NCBI GenBank assembly: GCA_964540285.1
Contig: CAZILW010000002.1
Coordinates: forward strand, 1 to 62,028
Reading direction: 5' to 3'
Length of the DNA: 62,028 nucleotides
From: an uncultured Gammaproteobacteria bacterium
Lineage (GTDB): Bacteria > Patescibacteriota > Patescibacteriia > Patescibacteriales > UBA12465
In this document: piece by piece, positions 3,680 through 62,028 of the stretch
How the letters are laid out: each line of letters opens with the position of its first letter
Numbering within the stretch: the stretch's first letter is position 1
Translations under genes and position numbers: made by a program
The notes under the pieces: model-generated
Databases searched by the model: none
The model's input: the letters and a program-made list of their open reading frames with translations, nothing else
What the model was told of the DNA's origin: nothing

Positions 3680-5371
3680 ATGAAACAAGAAAAAAAGAAA
3701 GGCAAATATAAAATAGCTTACTTTAGCATGGAAATAGCTTTGGAAAATGATATTAAAACTTATGCTGGCGGACTTGGTATTTTGGCGGGAGATACTTTAA
3801 GGTCAGCTGCTGATTTGGGGTTGCCAATGCTGGGAGTTACTCTTTTAAATAATTTGGGATATTTTAAGCAAAAAATAGGTAAAAACGGACAAGAAGAATT
3901 AAAGTCAAACTATAATTTATCTAAATTAAAAAAGTTGCCAAATAAAGTTAAAATTAAGATTGGCAAAGATGAGGTTTCAGTTGGTGTTTGGGAATATTTA
4001 ATTGTTGGGCATGGTCAATATCCTGTGCCTGTTTATCTCTTAGACACTAATACTTCTACTAATTTACCTAAATATGCTAGTTTGACTGGTCAGCTTTATG
4101 GACCCGGAAAGGATTATCGACTGATGCAAGAAATTGTTTTGGGCAGAGCTGGGGTTAAAATTTTAAATTCTTTGGGTCATAAATATTTAAGAAAATTTCA
4201 CATTAATGAAGGTCATGGAAGTTTGGCTGCAGTTGAATTATTTCTTAATTCTAAAGAAAAAAAATCTGAAGATAGGATTAGAGATGTTAGAAGAAAATGT
4301 GTTTTTACAACACACACTCCAGTTGATGCTGGTCATGATGTTTTTCCTTTGGACTTTTTTTTAGAGTATCAAAAAGATTTTCCTTATAAATTGAAAAATT
4401 TAGTTGACAAGAAAACAGTTAACATGACAAAAATTGGTTTATTTTTTAGTAACTTTATAAATGGAGTGGCCTTAAGTCATCAAAAAGTTTCTAATAAAAT
4501 GTTTCCTGAGTATCCTATCCACGCTATTACTAATGGAGTTCACTCTGAGACCTGGACTTCTCCCGATTTTCAAAAGATATATGATAAATATATTCCTAAT
4601 TGGAGGAACTCTAATTTGTCTCTAAGAAATGTTTTTAATATTCCTTTGTCAGTTATTTGGCAGGCTCATCAAAAATCAAAAAAAAGATTAATAGACTATA
4701 TTTATAAGAAGCAAAAAACTAAATTAGATCTCAATGTTTTTACTATTGGCTTTGCTAGAAGATTTACCGGATATAAAAGGTCTAATTTGCTTTTTCAAGA
4801 CATAAAAAGACTTTTAAACATTCATCGCAATGTTGGTCAAATTCAAATAATTTATGCTGGTAAAGCCCACCCCAACGATGTTGATGGAAAAAAATTAATT
4901 AAAAATATATTAAATTTAAAAGAAGAGTATAAAAATGAAATTAAAATTATTTTCTTGGAGGGCTATGAAATGAAATTAGCCAAACTAATGATTGCTGGCG
5001 TTGATGTTTGGCTTAACACCCCCCTTCCTCCTAACGAAGCTTCTGGAACTAGTGGCATGAAAGCTGCTCATAATGGAGTTCCTCATTTTAGCACTCTCGA
5101 CGGTTGGTGGTTGGAGGGATATATTAAAGATAAGACAGGATGGGCTATTGGAGAAAAAAGAAAAAAATTTAATTCTTTTGAATTAAACAAAAAGGACGCT
5201 GAAAGCTTATATTACAATTTAGAAAATAAAATATTACCACGTTACTATGGTTTGCCTAAAAAATGGCAAGAGACAATGCAGAACACAATTGCTATTAATG
5301 CATCTTATTTTAATACTGAAAGAATGCTTCAGCAATATATTCAAGAAAATTATTTTGTTAGTGAAAATTAA
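3680..5371 (+). CDS. glgP: alpha-glucan (glycogen/maltodextrin) phosphorylase, GT35 family
   Basis: YFSMEIAL...YAGGLGILAGD at the N-terminus and the EASGTSGMKAAHNGV pyridoxal-phosphate Lys motif. Confidence 0.9.
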   Translation: MKQEKKKGKYKIAYFSMEIALENDIKTYAGGLGILAGDTLRSAADLGLPMLGVTLLNNLGYFKQKIGKNGQEELKSNYNLSKLKKLPNKVKIKIGKDEVSVGVWEYLIVGHGQYPVPVYLLDTNTSTNLPKYASLTGQLYGPGKDYRLMQEIVLGRAGVKILNSLGHKYLRKFHINEGHGSLAAVELFLNSKEKKSEDRIRDVRRKCVFTTHTPVDAGHDVFPLDFFLEYQKDFPYKLKNLVDKKTVNMTKIGLFFSNFINGVALSHQKVSNKMFPEYPIHAITNGVHSETWTSPDFQKIYDKYIPNWRNSNLSLRNVFNIPLSVIWQAHQKSKKRLIDYIYKKQKTKLDLNVFTIGFARRFTGYKRSNLLFQDIKRLLNIHRNVGQIQIIYAGKAHPNDVDGKKLIKNILNLKEEYKNEIKIIFLEGYEMKLAKLMIAGVDVWLNTPLPPNEASGTSGMKAAHNGVPHFSTLDGWWLEGYIKDKTGWAIGEKRKKFNSFELNKKDAESLYYNLENKILPRYYGLPKKWQETMQNTIAINASYFNTERMLQQYIQENYFVSEN

Positions 5372-5394: not shown

Positions 5395-8121
5395 ATGGAA
5401 ACAAAAAAAAGAGAAAGAAAGTTTGATTGGCATTCGCTAGAAATAAATAGTGTTTTTAAAGAACTAAATTCTTCTGAGGCAGGGTTAGACTCTCAAGAGG
5501 TTTATAATAGACAAAAAGAATTTGGTTTAAATGCTCTTCCCACTAAAAAAGCTCCGAGTATTTTTTCTATATTTTTTCACCAATTTTTAAATCCACTTAT
5601 TTATATACTTATAGTAGCTGGAGTTATCTCTATTTTAATTGCTTTAAAAGATGAGCATCATGGTTTTACAGACGCCTTCTTTATTTTTGGAGCTATCTTT
5701 TTTAATGCCTTGGTTGGAACTTGGCAGGAAAATAAGGCAGAAAAAAGTGCTGCTGCTTTACAGAATTTTTTAAAAATTAAAGCCAGGGTTAGAAGACATG
5801 GAATAGAAAAAGATATTAGTGCTGATGATTTGGTTGTTGGTGATGTTGTTTATTTAGAATCGGGAACAAAAGTCCCAGCTGATTTAAGATTGTTTTATGC
5901 TAAAAATTTATTAATTGATGAATCTTTTTTAACTGGAGAGTCGGAGGCAGTTGAAAAAAATATTGAAAAAGTTAAAAAAACTACAGAACTTAACAAAAGA
6001 AGTAGTATGGCTTATGCTGGTTCTTCTGTTAGTGCTGGCCGCGCTTGGGGCGTTGTGGTAGAAACAGGTTTAAACACTGAGGTTGGTCAAATAGCTCATA
6101 TTATTTCTTCTTCTCAAAAAACAAAACCACCATTAATTATTAGAATGGAAAGTTTCACTAAAAAAGTTTCTTTTGTTATTTTATTTTTATGTTTATTGTT
6201 GGCTGTTATAGCAATTTTAAAAGGAATGAACTCTAAAGAAGTTTTTTTCTTGGTGGTTGCCTTGGCAGTTTCTTCTATACCAGAAGGGCTTCCAGTGGCC
6301 TTAACAGTGGCTCTTTCAGTGGCCACAACCAGAATGTCAAAGAGAAATGTTGTTGTTAGAAAATTAACAGCCGTTGAGGGCCTTGGGTCTTGTACAACAA
6401 TTGCTAGTGATAAAACTGGAACATTAACTGTCAATCAGCAAACAGCTAAATTAATTTATTTATTTTCAGGAGAAAAGATAGAAATAAGCGGACAAGGATA
6501 TAATGGTGTCGGTTCTTTGGCTAATTATGAAAACCTTAATTTAGAATCTAAGGAGGGAGTGAGTGAGCTTGTTAAAAATTCTATTTTAGCTAATGAAGGA
6601 AAACTTTGGAGATCAAAAAAAATTTGGCATAGTCAAGGAGATTCAATGGATGTGGCTTTTTTGGCAATGGCTTATAAAGCTGGATTTGATGTTAAAGAAA
6701 TTAATAATTCAGTTGAACATCTTTTGGATATTCCTTATGAATCAGAAAATAAATATTCAGCTAAAATTTATAAGGATAATGGTTCAAATTCGATTAAAGT
6801 TGCTATCAAGGGATCGGTTGATACTATTTTAAATTTTTGTTCAAAAAGAGGCTTAGAAAATCAAGAGATTAATAAAGAGGAAATAAAAAAAGAAGCCGAA
6901 AAATTAGCTTCTTCGGGTTATCGAGTTTTGGCGGTGGCTTATGGTGATTTTGATTTTAATGAAAGTGATAAAGAAAAATTTGATAATCGAAAATTAAAAA
7001 ATTTAAATTTTTTATCACTAGTTTGTTTTATTGATCCTTTAAGACATGATTCTAAAGAGGCGGTTGAAAAATGTAAAAAAGCTGGCATAAAAGTTATTAT
7101 GATCACTGGTGATCATCCAGCCACAGCTTTATTTATTTCAAAAGAATTGGGAATAGCTTATTCTGAAAAAGATGTGATTAGCGGAGCGGAGTTAGGAAGT
7201 GAAGAGACAGAAATCACTCCTCAGTTTTTGGAAAAAGTTGCCACTAAAAGTGTTTTTGCTGGAGTTTCTCCACTTCAGAAATTAAAAATAGTTAAAGCTT
7301 TAGTTAAAGAGGGTCATTTTGTAGCTGTAACTGGAGATGGTGTTAATGACGCTCCCGCACTTAAACAAGCTAATATTGGAATAGCTATGGGCTCAGGAAC
7401 AGATGTGGCCAAGGAAACATCAACCATGATTGTTTCTGATGACAACTTTTCATCGATAGTTAACGGAGTTGAAGAGGGTCGATTTGCTTATGATAATATT
7501 CGTAAAGTGGTTTATTTTTTAATTTCTAGTGGTGCGGCTGAAATATTAATATTTATTTTAGCAATTATTTTTAATCTTCCTTTGCCTTTGTTTGCGGCTC
7601 AATTATTATGGTTAAATATTGTAACTAATGGAATACAAGATATGGCTTTATCTTTTGAGGCTGGAGAAGATGGGGCCATGAAAAGACCACCACGATCCCC
7701 TAGGGAAGGAATTTTTAATAAACTAATGACTCAGCAAACAATAGTTTCCGGAGTAGCAATTGGTTTGGTCAGCTTTATTGTTTGGTGGTATTTAATTAAA
7801 ATAATGGTTTGGGAGGAGTCTCATGCTAGAAACTTTCTTTTGATGTTGATGGTTTTATTTCAAAATGTTCACGTTTTAAATTGCAGATCAGAGCTTATAT
7901 CAACCTTTAAAATTGCAATTAAAAAGAATTTAGTTGTCTTTTTTGGAATTTTAAGTGCTCAAGCTTTACACATTTTTGCACTTTATAATCCTTTTCTTCG
8001 CAAAGCTCTTCAAACCAGTCCTATTCCCTTTAAGGAGTGGTTTTATTTATTATTAATCGCTTCTTCAGTTTTGATTGTAATGGAAGTGTTTAAAATAATT
8101 AAAAGAAAAAGTAAAATTTAA
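5395..8121 (+). CDS. cation-transporting P-type ATPase (P2, Ca2+/Mg2+-type)
   Basis: DKTGTLT phosphorylation motif, TGES, TGDGVNDAPALK hinge, about 10 TM segments, 908 aa. Confidence 0.9.
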   Translation: METKKRERKFDWHSLEINSVFKELNSSEAGLDSQEVYNRQKEFGLNALPTKKAPSIFSIFFHQFLNPLIYILIVAGVISILIALKDEHHGFTDAFFIFGAIFFNALVGTWQENKAEKSAAALQNFLKIKARVRRHGIEKDISADDLVVGDVVYLESGTKVPADLRLFYAKNLLIDESFLTGESEAVEKNIEKVKKTTELNKRSSMAYAGSSVSAGRAWGVVVETGLNTEVGQIAHIISSSQKTKPPLIIRMESFTKKVSFVILFLCLLLAVIAILKGMNSKEVFFLVVALAVSSIPEGLPVALTVALSVATTRMSKRNVVVRKLTAVEGLGSCTTIASDKTGTLTVNQQTAKLIYLFSGEKIEISGQGYNGVGSLANYENLNLESKEGVSELVKNSILANEGKLWRSKKIWHSQGDSMDVAFLAMAYKAGFDVKEINNSVEHLLDIPYESENKYSAKIYKDNGSNSIKVAIKGSVDTILNFCSKRGLENQEINKEEIKKEAEKLASSGYRVLAVAYGDFDFNESDKEKFDNRKLKNLNFLSLVCFIDPLRHDSKEAVEKCKKAGIKVIMITGDHPATALFISKELGIAYSEKDVISGAELGSEETEITPQFLEKVATKSVFAGVSPLQKLKIVKALVKEGHFVAVTGDGVNDAPALKQANIGIAMGSGTDVAKETSTMIVSDDNFSSIVNGVEEGRFAYDNIRKVVYFLISSGAAEILIFILAIIFNLPLPLFAAQLLWLNIVTNGIQDMALSFEAGEDGAMKRPPRSPREGIFNKLMTQQTIVSGVAIGLVSFIVWWYLIKIMVWEESHARNFLLMLMVLFQNVHVLNCRSELISTFKIAIKKNLVVFFGILSAQALHIFALYNPFLRKALQTSPIPFKEWFYLLLIASSVLIVMEVFKIIKRKSKI

Positions 8122-58081: not shown

Positions 58082-58107
58082 ATAAAATTAAAATTAATTA
58101 AATAAAT

Positions 58108-58827
58108 ATGTCAGGACATTCCAAGTGGGCAACAATCAAAAGGGCAAAGGCCGTAACCGATGCTAAAAGAGGTGCAATTTTTACAAAATTAGGCAATGCT
58201 ATAACTATCGCTGCCAGAGAAAAAGGGGGAGATGTTGATGCTAATCCTAGCCTAAGAGTGGCTATTGAAAAAGCTCGTTCAGCTAATATGCCAAAAGACA
58301 ACATAGAAAGAGCTATAAAAAAAGGCACAGGGGAGCTAGCTGGCGATGCAGTTGAAGAATTGTATTACGAAGCTGTTCTTCCTGGAAATATTCAAATAGT
58401 TATCAAATGTTTAACCGACAATAAAAATCGTAGTGCCGCTACAGTTCGACATGCCTTGTCTAAGGCCGGAGGAAGCTTGGGGGCTGTTATGTGGAATTTT
58501 GAACAAAAAGGACTTATTTCTGTTTCGAAAGAAAGTTTAGATGCTAAAAATATTAATTTAGAAGAGTTAGAATTAGAACTAATTGAAAAAAATGTTGATG
58601 ATATTAAAATAGAGTCTGAAGGCTTGATTATTTATACTAAAGTGGAAGACCTTCAGTCCGTAAAATCTTTTATAGAGGAAAAAGATTTAAAAATAGAGTC
58701 AGCTGAAATTGAATATGTTGCCAAAGACAGGCTTAAAGTATCAGAAGAGGAAGATGTTAAATTAAGCAATTTTTTAGAAAATTTAGAAGATTTAGAGGAT
58801 GTGAATGATTATTATTTAAATATTTAA
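58108..58827 (+). CDS. yebC: YebC/PmpR family DNA-binding transcriptional regulator
   Basis: MSGHSKWATIKRAKAVTDAKRG N-terminus. Confidence 0.95.
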   Translation: MSGHSKWATIKRAKAVTDAKRGAIFTKLGNAITIAAREKGGDVDANPSLRVAIEKARSANMPKDNIERAIKKGTGELAGDAVEELYYEAVLPGNIQIVIKCLTDNKNRSAATVRHALSKAGGSLGAVMWNFEQKGLISVSKESLDAKNINLEELELELIEKNVDDIKIESEGLIIYTKVEDLQSVKSFIEEKDLKIESAEIEYVAKDRLKVSEEEDVKLSNFLENLEDLEDVNDYYLNI

Positions 58828-58832
58828 AAAAG

Positions 58833-58852
58833 TTATCCACAGCCTTTCCACA
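58833..58852 (+). promoter_or_regulatory. two adjacent DnaA-box-like 9-mers
   Basis: TTATCCACA (58833-58841, exact consensus) and CTTTCCACA (58844-58852, 8 of 9), in direct orientation. Confidence 0.35.
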
Positions 58853-58886
58853 TAAACTTCAAAAAAAATCAAGATTATACCAACCT

Positions 58887-58913
58887 CCCCCTTTATTTAA
58901 GGGGGTTTTGTTT
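58887..58913 (+). terminator. intrinsic terminator after yebC
   Basis: Stem CCCCCTT/AAGGGGG followed by TTTTGTTT. Confidence 0.75.
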
Positions 58914-58917
58914 ATGT

Positions 58918-58946
58918 TTGCTCCATTTGTTATTTTTTGCTATAAT
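58918..58946 (+). promoter_or_regulatory. nrdR-nrdD operon promoter
   Basis: TTGCTC (58918-58923), 17-bp spacer, TGcTATAAT with the -10 hexamer at 58941-58946. Confidence 0.6.
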
Positions 58947-58951
58947 TTGTT

Positions 58952-58967
58952 TTACAAGATATAGTGG
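58952..58967. promoter_or_regulatory. NrdR box 1 (degenerate)
   Basis: The reverse complement CCACTATATCTTGTAA matches about 12 of 16 positions of the NrdR-box consensus acaCwAtATaTwGtgt. It lies immediately downstream of the -10. Confidence 0.55.
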
Positions 58968-58984
58968 TTATAAATAATTTTACT

Positions 58985-59000
58985 ACACTATATATTGTGT
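58985..59000. promoter_or_regulatory. NrdR box 2 (perfect)
   Basis: ACACTATATATTGTGT matches all 16 positions of the NrdR-box consensus. Its centre is ~33 bp from box 1. Confidence 0.8.
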
Positions 59001-59013
59001 TTAACTATAATAG

Positions 59014-59478
59014 ATGAAATGTCCTGTTTGTCACTTTGAAGATACAAAAGTTATTGATTCCAGGATGTCTGGTGATGGTTTTTTAATAAGGAGAAGAAGA
59101 GAGTGCTTAAAATGCGGCTTTAGGTTTTCAACTCACGAGGAAATGGAGATTTTGGACCTAACAGTAATTAAAAAAGATGAACGAAAAGAGTCTTATGATC
59201 GCGAAAAAATAGTAATTGGACTGAGAAAGGCTTTAGAAAAAAGAAATTGTGATGAAGAGAAGTTTAAAAAATTGGTTTATTGTATTGAAAGAGATTTACA
59301 GGTCTTAAATAGGGACGAGGTTAGTTCTGTTGAAATAGGAGAAATAGTTATGAGAAATTTAAAAAAAATAGATAAAGTTGCCTATATTAGATATGCTTCT
59401 GTTTATCAGTCTTTTGATGGATTGGAAGAATTTAGTGAAGAGTTAGAAAAACTATTAAAAAGCAAAAAAAATAAATAA
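59014..59478 (+). CDS. nrdR: transcriptional repressor NrdR
   Basis: MKCPVCHFEDTKVIDSR zinc ribbon plus an ATP-cone. Confidence 0.95.
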   Translation: MKCPVCHFEDTKVIDSRMSGDGFLIRRRRECLKCGFRFSTHEEMEILDLTVIKKDERKESYDREKIVIGLRKALEKRNCDEEKFKKLVYCIERDLQVLNRDEVSSVEIGEIVMRNLKKIDKVAYIRYASVYQSFDGLEEFSEELEKLLKSKKNK

Positions 59479-59548
59479 AATTTATCATAGTCTATTTTAA
59501 AAAGTTTTATTATTATCTAAAATTTTTTAAAATAGCTTATAAAATTAC

Positions 59549-61615
59549 ATGCCTAGTCAAAATGTAAGCCAAATTCGCAAAAGGTCAGGCGAAATTTCTG
59601 AGTTTAAACAGGAAAAAATTGTGGAGGCTGTTTTAAAGGCCATGAAATCGGCTGATGAAGAAAATTTAGCTTTAGCTGAGGAGATAAGTGCCAAGGTTGT
59701 TTCTAAGGTTGCTAAAAAATTTCATCACAATTCTATTCCGGCAGTAGAGGAGATTCAAGATCTGGTTGAAGAAACTTTAATTGAGCAAAAACTTATTAAA
59801 ACTGCCAAGGCTTATATTCTTTACAGAGACCAAAGAAGACAAGTTAGAGAAATTAAAGAAAGCACAGAAGAAAAATTAATGGAAGACTATTTGGGCAGAT
59901 CTGATTGGAGATTAAAGGAGAATAGTAATATGAGTTTCTCAGTTCAAGGTTTAAATAATTACATTGCTTCCTCTGTTTCGGCTAAATATTGGTTAAATAA
60001 ACTTTATCCAGAGGTGATTAGAAAGGCTCATGTTGACGGTGATTTTCATATTCATGATTTAGGATTGCTTGCTCCATATTGTTGTGGTTGGGATTTAAAA
60101 GACTTATTATTGAAGGGTTTCGGCGGTGTTTCAACTAAAATTCAAAGTAAACCACCTAAACATTTTAGAAGTGCCTTAGGTCAGGTTGTTAATTTCTTTT
60201 ATACTATGCAGGGTGAGGCAGCCGGAGCTCAGGCTTTTGCTAACTTTGATACTTACTTGGCTCCTTTTATTCGATATGACGATCTTTCATATAAAGAAAT
60301 AAAACAGGCCTTACAAGAGTTTGTTTTTAATGTTAATGTTCCAACTCGTGTTGGTTTTCAAACTCCTTTTACAAACATAACCTTAGACGTTACTCCATCT
60401 AATCTTTTAGGAAAAGAAAACGTTATTATTGGCGGGAAATTAATGGAAGAAACTTATGCAGATTTTCAAACTGAAATGGATTTATTTAATAAAGCTTTTG
60501 CGGAGGTTATGATTGAGGGTGATGCTTCTGGTAGGGTTTTTGCCTTTCCTATTCCAACCTATAATGTTGATAAAGATTTTGACTGGAATAGAGAGTCTTT
60601 GAAACCGATGTGGGAAATGACTTCAAAATATGGAATTCCTTATTTTTCTAACTTTGTGAATTCTGACATGAATCGTGACGATGCTCGTAGTATGTGTTGT
60701 CGCTTAAGACTTGATAATCGAGAGTTGAGAAAAAGAGGTGGTGGTTTGTTTGGAGCTAATCCTTTAACTGGAAGTTTGGGAGTTGTGACTATAAATTTAG
60801 CTCGGCTTGGATATTTGGCAAAAGATGAAAAAGATTTTAAAGATAAGCTTAAGAAATTAATGGACTTGGCCAAAGATAGTTTAGTTATTAAAAGAAAAGT
60901 TATTGAAAAATTTACTGAAGATGGCCTTTATCCTTATTCTAAATTTTATTTAGCCGATATTAATGAAAGATTTGGTTCTTACTGGAAAAATCATTTTAAT
61001 ACAATCGGTCTAAATGGTATGAATGAAGCTGTTTTAAATCTTTTACAATCAGATTTAACCAGCGTTAAAGGTCATAAGTTTGCTCTCGAAATAATGGACT
61101 TTATGAGAGAAATTATTGCAGGCTATCAAGAGGAGTCTGGCGATCTTTATAATCTTGAAGCAACTCCTGGTGAGGGATGCACTTATCGTTTTGCCAAAAA
61201 AGATAAAGAAGTTTATCCTGAGATAGTTTGTGCTAATAATCAAGCTGTTAACGAAAGAGGGGCGGATCCTTATTATACAAATTCTACTCATTTGCCGGTT
61301 GGTTTTACCGATGATATTTTTACAGCTCTTGAATTACAGGATGAATTGCAAACAAAATATACTGGAGGAACGGTTTTACATGGGTTTTTAGGAGAAAGAA
61401 TTAATGATATAGAGTTAACTAAAAAATTAGTTAAAACAATAGTTGAAAATTATAAATTACCTTATTTCACGGTAACTCCTACATTTTCAGTTTGCCCTAT
61501 TCATGGTTATCTATCAGGAGAGCATAAATATTGCCCTAAATGTGACGAAGAAAGAGGTCAGGTTGTTTTTGTTCATAATCAAAGTGAGAAAAGTGATAGC
61601 TCTCATAACTCTTAA
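59549..61615 (+). CDS. nrdD: anaerobic ribonucleoside-triphosphate reductase (class III) catalytic body, lacking the glycyl-radical segment
   Basis: N-terminal ATP-cone, class III core (e.g. NFVNSDM..RSMCCRLRL) and C-terminal Zn site CPIHG...CPKC. It ends at TAA before any RVxG[YW] motif. Confidence 0.9.
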   Translation: MPSQNVSQIRKRSGEISEFKQEKIVEAVLKAMKSADEENLALAEEISAKVVSKVAKKFHHNSIPAVEEIQDLVEETLIEQKLIKTAKAYILYRDQRRQVREIKESTEEKLMEDYLGRSDWRLKENSNMSFSVQGLNNYIASSVSAKYWLNKLYPEVIRKAHVDGDFHIHDLGLLAPYCCGWDLKDLLLKGFGGVSTKIQSKPPKHFRSALGQVVNFFYTMQGEAAGAQAFANFDTYLAPFIRYDDLSYKEIKQALQEFVFNVNVPTRVGFQTPFTNITLDVTPSNLLGKENVIIGGKLMEETYADFQTEMDLFNKAFAEVMIEGDASGRVFAFPIPTYNVDKDFDWNRESLKPMWEMTSKYGIPYFSNFVNSDMNRDDARSMCCRLRLDNRELRKRGGGLFGANPLTGSLGVVTINLARLGYLAKDEKDFKDKLKKLMDLAKDSLVIKRKVIEKFTEDGLYPYSKFYLADINERFGSYWKNHFNTIGLNGMNEAVLNLLQSDLTSVKGHKFALEIMDFMREIIAGYQEESGDLYNLEATPGEGCTYRFAKKDKEVYPEIVCANNQAVNERGADPYYTNSTHLPVGFTDDIFTALELQDELQTKYTGGTVLHGFLGERINDIELTKKLVKTIVENYKLPYFTVTPTFSVCPIHGYLSGEHKYCPKCDEERGQVVFVHNQSEKSDSSHNS

Positions 61616-61651
61616 TTTTTATTATTTATTATTAATTATAAAAGCAGTATT

Positions 61652-61849
61652 ATGAAAAATCTTAATACTGCCAAAACAAAGAATATGAGCCCAATTGAAA
61701 CAAACAAAAGAACAGAGTGTATCGTTTACAGTAGAGTAGTTGGTTGGTTAACCCCAACAGTAAATTATAACAAAGGAAAGTTTGCTGAATATTGTGACAG
61801 AAAAACATACAAGGTTAACTCGGATAAAGTCGATAGTCTTAAAAATTAA
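61652..61849 (+). CDS. nrdD: NrdD C-terminal glycyl-radical domain encoded as a separate in-frame ORF
   Basis: VYSRVVGWLTPTVNYNKGKFAEYCDRK aligns by eye with the canonical NrdD C-terminus (RRVCGYLG....FNAGKQEEVKRR in E. coli). Same frame as 59549..61615, with a single TAA between them. Confidence 0.7.
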   Translation: MKNLNTAKTKNMSPIETNKRTECIVYSRVVGWLTPTVNYNKGKFAEYCDRKTYKVNSDKVDSLKN

Positions 61850-61860
61850 TTTTTTTAAAA

Positions 61861-62028
61861 ATGATTATTGGTGGTTTAGAGAAGCTTAGTTTAATTGACT
61901 TTCCTGGTCATTTGGCCGCAATTGTTTTTACCAAGTCTTGTAATTTTCGTTGTCATTTCTGTTATAACCCCATGCTCGTTTTCGCCGAAGGCGAGAGCGA
62001 ATTAAAAAATATAGATGAAGGTCCTTCT
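61861..62028 (+). CDS. nrdG: anaerobic ribonucleotide reductase activating protein (radical SAM), 5' partial at window end
   Basis: MIIGGLEKLSLIDFPGHLAAIVFTKSCNFRCHFCYNP, with the CxxxCxxC cluster. The ORF runs off the window and is not in the supplied track. Confidence 0.85.
   Translation, partial: MIIGGLEKLSLIDFPGHLAAIVFTKSCNFRCHFCYNPMLVFAEGESELKNIDEGPS

Follow-up and report, generated by a model that had tools for sequence, protein, structure and literature searches.

In class III ribonucleotide reductase (RNR), the archetypal glycyl-radical enzyme, the radical glycine of every described member lies, to our knowledge, within a catalytic chain of ~600–750 residues. Our analysis of a stretch of DNA of 62,028 nt (the window; contig CAZILW010000002.1, forward strand, 30% GC) showed that the nrdD gene near its right-hand end is divided between two open reading frames (ORFs), one for a 688-aa body and a small one for a glycyl-radical peptide. 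Judging from sequence comparison, this split nrdD very probably encodes a functional, obligate two-subunit class III RNR. The split is natural and ancient, and it is common to hundreds of species from at least two phyla. We observed the split itself, its conservation, selection on both parts, independent starts and the operon context. An earlier note on this DNA had listed four explanations, namely a two-piece enzyme with a detachable radical part, programmed readthrough, a recent nonsense mutation and a sequencing or assembly error, and had chosen none of them; the comparative evidence supports the first.

The body and the radical peptide

The body gene (59549..61615, + strand) ends with a TAA at 61613–61615 and encodes an ATP-cone, a catalytic barrel and a zinc ribbon. 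It matched the equivalog model NF006126 with 1042 bits (cutoff 548) over profile positions 3–652 of 684, and TIGR02487 with 512.8 bits (cutoff 326). The ATP-cone occupies residues 8–97. The Pfam profile NRDD (PF13597) was matched with an E value of 8e-185, residues 124–669 corresponding to profile positions 1–531 of 562. The finger loop, as read from the sequence, is MCCR (M382–R385; 60692..60703, + strand) within the segment SMCCRLRL (residues 381–388), and MCCR was invariant in 63 aligned bodies. This double-cysteine form is the motif class of T. maritima NrdD (PMC9669993).

The whole zinc ribbon CPIH-x9-CPKC (C649, H652, C662 and C665; 61493..61543, + strand) is on the body and aligns with the ribbons of T. 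maritima and P. copri NrdD. In T. maritima NrdD, zinc is bound via a Cys/His/Cys/Cys motif (PMC4493059), and the Cys/His/Cys/Cys ribbon of the body is a putative zinc site, complete with four ligands. These four residues were invariant in 63 aligned Patescibacteria-type bodies. C665 was merely near-invariant after two Anaerolineae rows had been added, because those bodies have CPYDH; the second zinc knuckle in loci of the Anaerolineae/Chloroflexota type reads CPYDH or CPYEH. No RVxG glycyl-radical motif was found on the body, which ends at position 531 of the 562 of the NRDD profile. All features of the body but the covalent radical loop are those of a genuine NrdD of the MCCR/T. maritima subclass.

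The radical motif lies in the next ORF (61652..61849, + strand; YSRVVGW, with the glycine G31 at 61742–61744), which encodes 65 aa from its first ATG or 54 aa from the ATG at 61685. Residues 20–53 of this small ORF matched NRDD positions 530–562 of 562 (E = 2.5e-5). The profile is thus partitioned between the body (1–531) and the peptide (530–562), so that ~50 non-profile codons, including the stop, lie between adjacent profile positions. The family-profile alignment that the earlier note had proposed as a check therefore divides cleanly between the two ORFs. Two of its descriptions are likewise seen in the sequence: the 688-aa ORF ends after the zinc ribbon without a radical motif, and the motif follows in the same frame, with one stop and 12 sense codons in between. 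It had placed the split between the catalytic body and the radical domain, but the break is inside the classical domain: it falls in the short connector that runs from the last zinc ligand to the glycine loop, and the zinc ribbon stays on the body.

In a Pfam scan of the peptide at E ≤ 0.01, PF13597 NRDD was the sole match and no Gly_radical domain, the type of pyruvate formate-lyase (PFL), was found. A PDB search with the peptide alone gave no match. A 'healed' construct of zinc ribbon and peptide core was needed, and it gave a continuous alignment to residues 551–644 of T. maritima NrdD and 663–738 of P. copri NrdD. The radical motif is RVVGW here, compared with the textbook RVxGY. Among 36 peptide homologues, 14 positions were invariant. 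In the peptide core (35 codons), the proportion of synonymous differences (pS) was 0.78, which is near saturation, that of nonsynonymous differences (pN) was 0.12, and the median ratio of nonsynonymous to synonymous substitution rates (dN/dS) was 0.08 over 912 unsaturated pairs. Purifying selection acts strongly on this core.

The small ORF exists as the earlier note had given it, from 61652, but the evolutionarily conserved start is the second ATG at 61685 ('MSPIETN...'), and most relatives begin at MSPI. The first ATG is common to the nearest relatives only and is lost in L014. The initiation context, AAGAAT before the ATG (61679..61687, + strand), is conserved in relatives: the MSPI ATG is preceded by T at −1 in all 80 loci, and 72 of them have A at −2 and 72–74 have A at −5/−6. 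The region upstream is randomised save for these last six bases (consensus AAAAAT), and a Shine-Dalgarno-like motif was present in 6 of 81 cases. In the window, a Shine-Dalgarno sequence was found at 3 of 55 gene starts and T at −1 at 38 of the 55, and the start context is A/T-rich, which suggests a non-Shine-Dalgarno mode of initiation in this organism. Since its context equals that of these ordinary Shine-Dalgarno-less starts, the peptide gene has a well-kept native start site.

The peptide has a Cys eight residues ahead of the radical glycine (C23 of the 65-aa ORF, 61718–61720; C..YSR..G). Of 142 diverse stand-alone peptides, 133 have a Cys of this type, as does a fused viral relative (L239); it was not found in T. 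maritima or P. copri NrdD. The idea that it completes the zinc site of the body was discarded, as four ligands are already present there, just as in T. maritima, and neither T. maritima nor P. copri has the Cys.

Behind its zinc ribbon, the body ends in a poorly conserved C-terminal tail (RGQVVFVHNQSEKSDSSHNS; 61553..61612, + strand). Identity among relatives was ~22% in this tail and 93% in the zinc-ribbon segment. In 120 homologues (P0036–P0155), the tail comprises 9–26 aa after the CxxC knuckle of the zinc ribbon (CPKC in most), and 40 of these 120 tails have two or more Cys within their last 8 residues (CQC, CSC, CC or CSTC). Such pairs resemble the C-terminal redox-shuttle cysteine pairs of class I/II RNRs. 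The lineage of the window has lost the pair (…SHNS) that its nearest relatives L011–L013 have kept (…NCQC). A Cys pair at the end of the peptide was seen in 5 of 35 cases. Two split-type bodies, P0064 (1079 aa) and P0066 (1049 aa), are ~350–400 aa longer than usual; P0064 has LAGLIDADG and intein-splicing Pfam domains, and P0066 has none on record.

Conservation of the split and variation of the junction

The exact pair of 688 and 65 aa was found on 17 contigs from independent samples (NCBI, ENA, JGI and Logan; different assemblers). Wherever the contig reaches far enough, the exact 65-aa protein always stands behind the same 688-aa body and before a 240-aa nrdG. The junction was identical in the 10 loci inspected among the 17 contigs, which included MEGAHIT-style and SPAdes-style names, JGI, Logan and an NCBI metagenome-assembled genome (MAG). 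A sequencing or assembly artefact at 61613–61615 is a general possibility in an AT-rich, homopolymer-like region, but an identical junction across projects and assemblers leaves it a vanishingly small probability.

A word-index search with the peptide gave 35 homologues of 41–65 aa, every one of them stand-alone. The search with the body gave 8000 candidates, the best 120 of which (74–91% identity) were named Patescibacteria and Falkowbacteria, and the RVxG motif was found in none of these best 120. In a scan of one genome per species, 386 genomes encoded a relative of the peptide. We surveyed the spacer and the frame in the best 80 loci among these 386 species genomes; 79 were scorable, and nrdD was split in all 79. 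A HMMER search with the 65-aa ORF against 1.84 billion cluster representatives gave 407 matches at E ≤ 1e-3. The best 150 of these were 46–131 aa long and 144 of the 150 begin with Met. Among the stand-alone peptides, the motifs RVVGY, RIVGY, RVVGW and RVVGF were found.

A profile built from 59 peptides matched 4564 clusters at 90% identity, and the best 120 of these were 45–85 aa long. Several of the best 120 were named Anaerolinea, Pelolinea, Anaerolineae or Chloroflexota, and one is the RefSeq protein WP_322506788.1 (Anaerolinea sp.). The four Anaerolineae loci L091–L094 (45–55% GC) have a 676–693-aa body without radical loop, then a 52–57-aa peptide, then nrdG. Here the gap between body and peptide gene is 22–34 nt and holds a genuine Shine-Dalgarno sequence (aaaaGGAGaaaaaATG), and nrdG overlaps the stop codon of the peptide gene. 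The order nrdR, body, peptide gene and nrdG was found again in L250 and L253 (59% GC). In L251, a DJ-1/PfpI-family gene (3812–4393) separates the body from the peptide gene. L252 has its 85-aa peptide gene (4501–4758) between a tRNA synthetase gene and a PTPS-related gene, and no NrdD body was found within 4.5 kb of it.

These data bear on the idea of a recent nonsense mutation, by which nrdD would be decaying to a pseudogene. It is true that textbook organisms have one continuous ORF where a stop stands here. However, the split is found in 120 of 120 body homologues and in all the scorable genomes, the peptide core has a dN/dS of ~0.08 with saturated synonymous sites, and the body, with no catalytic motif lost, reaches almost twice the equivalog cutoff. 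Conservation extends to the start context, and nrdR, the NrdR box and nrdG are intact. Decay is therefore highly improbable.

Two stand-alone proteins, P0282 (96 aa) and P0285 (131 aa), have a CxxC...CxxC zinc ribbon of their own in addition to the glycine loop. This implies that a second split, independent of the first, lies upstream of the ribbon and leaves the whole glycyl-radical domain separate. Among the relatives L011–L090, many MAG records whose NrdD is 75–90% identical to Patescibacteria/Falkowbacteria copies bear the title 'uncultured Gammaproteobacteria bacterium', with Actinomycetota or Planctomycetota in the titles of single records. These titles are probably submission-level mislabels, so the taxon names of L011–L090 are not to be trusted.

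In the window, the non-coding spacer from the body stop to the conserved start spans 61616..61684 (+ strand) and includes the non-conserved ATG at 61652. Our survey showed that the peptide gene is offset from the body frame by 0, +1 and +2 in 35, 20 and 24 loci, respectively, and the offset differs among the Anaerolineae relatives too. The spacer to the conserved start measures 18–184 nt and contains 1–8 stops in the body frame, with TAA, TAG and TGA all occurring. The in-frame arrangement with a single stop was found in 9 of the 80 loci, including the window. The nearest relative L011, whose peptide is 94% identical, has its peptide gene at +2, and a single-base indel distinguishes its spacer from that of L012. 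The earlier note had attached weight to the single in-frame TAA; as frame, spacer length and stop number vary freely, it is a coincidence of this lineage. The note had also asked whether the stop and the linker are conserved in orthologs. The split is conserved, but the number of stops and the spacer are not.

Readthrough, ribosomal bypass or frameshift would join the ORFs into a canonical NrdD of ~766 aa, and a readthrough product in this lineage would span '...SHNS-X-FLLFIINYKSSIMKN...'. This agrees with the layout of the window, where both ORFs share one frame and are separated by a single TAA plus 12 sense codons, and with the junction RNA, which folds better than shuffled controls (z = −3.4). 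We consider it very unlikely, since most loci have a +1/+2 offset, 2–8 stops or both, single-base indels occur in the spacer and L011 is out of frame. In addition, the start context is the one conserved element in the spacer, the junction fold is not conserved, and a whole gene lies between the pieces in L251. TAA is the main stop codon of the window (38 of 48 long ORFs), in which all three stop codons are in use. As TAA is an ordinary stop of this genome, no alternative genetic code is indicated.

The fold of the junction RNA (61595–61700) had a minimum free energy of −17.6 kcal/mol, compared with −8.9 for shuffles. A hairpin at 61644–61671 buries the upstream AUG, and L013 has a compensatory G-C to A-U change there. 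In an outer stem, the stop region of the body (61602–61613) pairs with the region of the conserved AUG (61679–61689). Across 80 relatives, the mean z was −0.76 and the AUG was paired to the stop region in 19 of the 80. A stem for translational coupling is thus not general, and we left it out of the mechanism for this reason.

The intervening ~150 nt could also be a removable element, such as a small intron or an intein-like or mobile element, with a fused mature product. Phage T4 nrdD carries a group I intron, P0064 has intein domains, and one phage body has an insert of ~1 kb. However, a Rfam scan of 58800–62028 at E up to 10 found no family at the junction, introns of groups I and II included, and the intron idea was dropped on this ground. 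Neither ORF has an intein Pfam domain, and no known self-splicing intron or split intein is as short as this insert. The spacer is unconserved in both sequence and length, no terminal repeats delimiting an element were found at the junction, and the peptide has its own conserved start. Such an element is extremely improbable.

Proposed working, phage copies and known systems

In class III RNR, NrdG makes the glycyl radical, and the radical glycine sits in the barrel beside a finger-loop cysteine. Glycyl-radical proteins are cleaved by oxygen at the radical glycine. For the split enzyme we propose that nrdR, body, peptide and nrdG would be expressed from one NrdR-controlled operon. The 688-aa body would bring the ATP-cone, the barrel with its MCCR finger loop and the full zinc ribbon, while the ~54-aa (~6 kDa) peptide would bring the radical loop ECIVYSRVVGW...NKGK together with the short C-terminal stretch found behind it in intact enzymes. 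NrdG would act on the peptide, whether free or docked, and abstract an H atom from its G31. The radical loop would then insert into the barrel beside the finger-loop cysteines, and catalysis would proceed as in intact NrdD. The two chains would assemble non-covalently, be activated by NrdG and remain exchangeable. The peptide would be an obligate subunit and not a spare, since the body has no radical loop of its own. An oxygen hit would cost a peptide of ~54 residues rather than an enzyme of ~700, and a fresh peptide would re-arm the body. The split is physically plausible, since the glycyl-radical domain of intact P. copri NrdD has high mobility and is able to exit the barrel as one unit (PMC11226230).

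Several points weigh against an obligate two-subunit enzyme. We infer assembly and activation from sequence, and the window ends within nrdG, which is complete in identical loci. Structure prediction supports neither way: the concatenation of the two chains with 62 bodies gave a mean predicted local distance difference test score (pLDDT) of 65, with 21–30 for the peptide and below 50 for the finger loop, and the single-sequence prediction gave 34. There may be a second, intact RNR outside the visible 62 kb. A trace of readthrough product may also be made in this lineage, whose ORFs are in frame with one TAA.

Our scan of IMG/VR showed that 371 viral contigs encode a relative of the peptide. 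We analysed the best 80 of these 371 contigs with 10-kb flanks (1.12 Mb; L175–L249, the same contigs as L095–L174) by tblastn with two NrdD bodies and two NrdG sequences as queries. The NrdD body was not detected within 10 kb in 77 of the 80 loci and nrdG was not detected in 78, being present in the other 2; the contigs may be fragments, and a very distant NrdD of the T4 type could escape these queries. Neither body nor nrdG was found in any of the 26 phage contigs that were covered end to end. Read literally, these data make most of the phage copies orphan radical peptides. The three loci with a body comprise a split one, a fused one and one whose body has a ~1-kb insert and is followed by nrdG and then the peptide gene; in this last locus (L206) the insert (6379–7361) interrupts the phage NrdD body. 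The fused one, on the viral contig L239, is the closest fused relative found (55% identical; junction 'CPKCNSDCEVYSRVVGY'). The peptide gene of L212 has phage helicase, primase/polymerase and HNH endonuclease genes as neighbours, that is, a replication module. A 308-aa ORF (6412–7335) lies 2.6 kb upstream of this orphan peptide gene and matched phrog_9298, 'radical SAM domain protein', with an E value of 1.7e-84. It had no Pfam or NCBIfam match and was not counted as a phage activase.

As most phage genes and L252 have no nearby body, the peptide can evidently be encoded apart from it. The orphan phage genes suggest an exchangeable radical cartridge. Orphan phage genes and unlinked cellular genes are what would be expected of a peptide that is an autonomous, exchangeable module. 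It is conceivable, though we advance this tentatively and with some doubt, that the peptide is a consumable cartridge which NrdG arms, that the body is long-lived and receives a fresh copy after oxygen damage, and that phages carry the peptide alone to keep or boost the anaerobic deoxyribonucleoside triphosphate synthesis of the host.

Alternatively, the small ORF could be a spare, in the manner of the GrcA protein of E. coli, for an intact NrdD elsewhere in the genome, the truncated body being inactive or otherwise employed. The phage peptide genes without body within 10 kb and the lone gene of L252 fit this, and the visible genome amounts to 62 kb. But the body is conserved with all catalytic motifs and is co-operonic with peptide and nrdG in nearly every cellular locus examined. 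A body without radical source would not stay under such constraint, and none of its 120 closest homologues is intact. We regard a spare as quite unlikely.

The obligate two-subunit enzyme can be compared with several known systems. The canonical single-chain NrdD of the T. maritima/N. bacilliformis MCCR subclass (4COI and 4U3E; P. copri, 8P23) shares with it the NF006126/PF13597 match, the ATP-cone, MCCR and the Cys/His/Cys/Cys ribbon. The radical loop, the NxGK motif downstream, the adjacent NrdG and the control by NrdR are likewise found here. In contrast to canonical NrdD, the chain is interrupted after the last zinc ligand and before the glycine loop. The connector between ribbon and loop has 3 residues in the fused L239, and in T. 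maritima there are ~12 from the last zinc Cys to the glycine. The split body has gained its unconserved tail of 9–26 residues and the peptide a conserved MSPIxT leader, and in this clade the glycine is followed by Trp as the aromatic residue.

GrcA/YfiD of E. coli and Y06I of phage T4 are small separate proteins with only a radical glycine loop, as is the peptide here. Presumably they share with it the activation by a cognate radical S-adenosylmethionine (SAM) activase, followed by docking into a large protein. Phage-encoded copies exist for this type as they do here (PMC8683613), and the orphan phage peptides parallel Y06I. GrcA, however, is a protein of ~14 kDa with homology to the PFL C-terminus and serves as a backup for intact PFL only after oxygen cleavage, while the peptide has ~6 kDa, is homologous to NrdD and would be obligate, as the body has no loop. 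The analogy with GrcA/YfiD drawn in the earlier note is thus apt for the possible working, but it does not extend to family membership, since the peptide matches the NRDD profile only and would be no spare.

Phage Aeh1 has an NrdA split by a homing-endonuclease gene. The nearest precedent of a split RNR is the class II NrdJa/NrdJb of Pseudomonas aeruginosa, a catalytic subunit reported to be encoded by two adjacent ORFs whose products must assemble non-covalently (Crona et al. 2015; PMC4520616). As with NrdJa/NrdJb, two adjacent ORFs here together cover one profile and both are conserved. NrdJa/NrdJb and Aeh1 NrdA differ from the present pair in RNR class and radical chemistry, and in them the radical residue is not known to have moved to a peptide of ~50 residues. 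Unlike in Aeh1, there is no homing endonuclease in the spacer here.

A review of June 2026 stated that the formate lyases are the sole glycyl-radical enzymes with identified spare parts and that the existence of others was undetermined (PMC13450708), and a paper of 2021 stated that spare parts had been validated for PFL only (PMC8683613). We found no description of a split class III RNR in open-access full text and bioRxiv, RNR phylogeny papers included; subscription journals or RNRdb curation notes could hold one. In annotation pipelines the body is labelled 'ribonucleoside triphosphate reductase' and the peptide appears as 'hypothetical protein' or as a 50-aa 'reductase', and a family-wide RNR study filtered its sequences to 400–1100 aa (PMC9531940). 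The split is easily missed, since the pipelines mislabel the peptide and such length filters drop it.

If our interpretation is true, it would answer the question of these two papers about spare parts beyond PFL. The cartridge would be the first spare-part or two-component architecture for a glycyl-radical enzyme besides PFL. The peptide would provide a minimal, separable activase substrate for studying how NrdG gains access to a glycine that is buried in the intact enzyme. The arrangement would also suggest how Patescibacteria and Anaerolineae, with tiny genomes and exposed to oxygen, curb the cost of oxygen damage to an essential enzyme, and the phage copies would represent a new kind of phage auxiliary gene.

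The nrd operon and its surroundings

The gene order at the right-hand end of the window is nrdR, nrdD body, peptide gene and nrdG. The nrdR gene (59014..59478, + strand) encodes the nrd transcriptional repressor (154 aa; Pfam Zn_ribbon_NrdR 3.5e-19, ATP-cone 7.4e-18). The nrdG gene for the radical-SAM activase (61861..62028, + strand) has its first 56 codons in the window, and this 56-residue fragment matched TIGR02495 (NrdG2) at 6.5e-14. A full 240-aa nrdG with Radical_SAM and Fer4_12 domains was found at the same position on L001–L003, L005, L007 and L009. Both genes are therefore intact, as the earlier note had stated.

A terminator-like hairpin (58887–58905) closes the gene upstream of the operon. 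Directly after it comes a promoter-like site, TTTACA-16-AATAAT (58951..58978, + strand), which was found by a consensus scan with 10 of 12 matches and is weak by itself. A putative NrdR box, ACACTATATATTGTGT (58985..59000, + strand), follows 14 nt upstream of nrdR. It is a perfect match to ACACWATATATWGTGT, which we take to be the NrdR-box consensus. This pattern had a single match in the whole window even when 3 mismatches were allowed, and we infer that the site acts as an NrdR box. A possible degenerate second copy was seen ~30 nt upstream (58955–58970). In the window scan, no terminator-like site was found between body, peptide gene and nrdG, and the nrd operon looks regulated and uninterrupted.

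The NCBI MAG contig L001, whose nrd genes are identical to those of the window, has an extra 413-aa gene (1182–2423) between a SIS-domain gene and yebC. This gene had no Pfam match and is not present in the window (58082–58107), which therefore indicates a strain-level indel.

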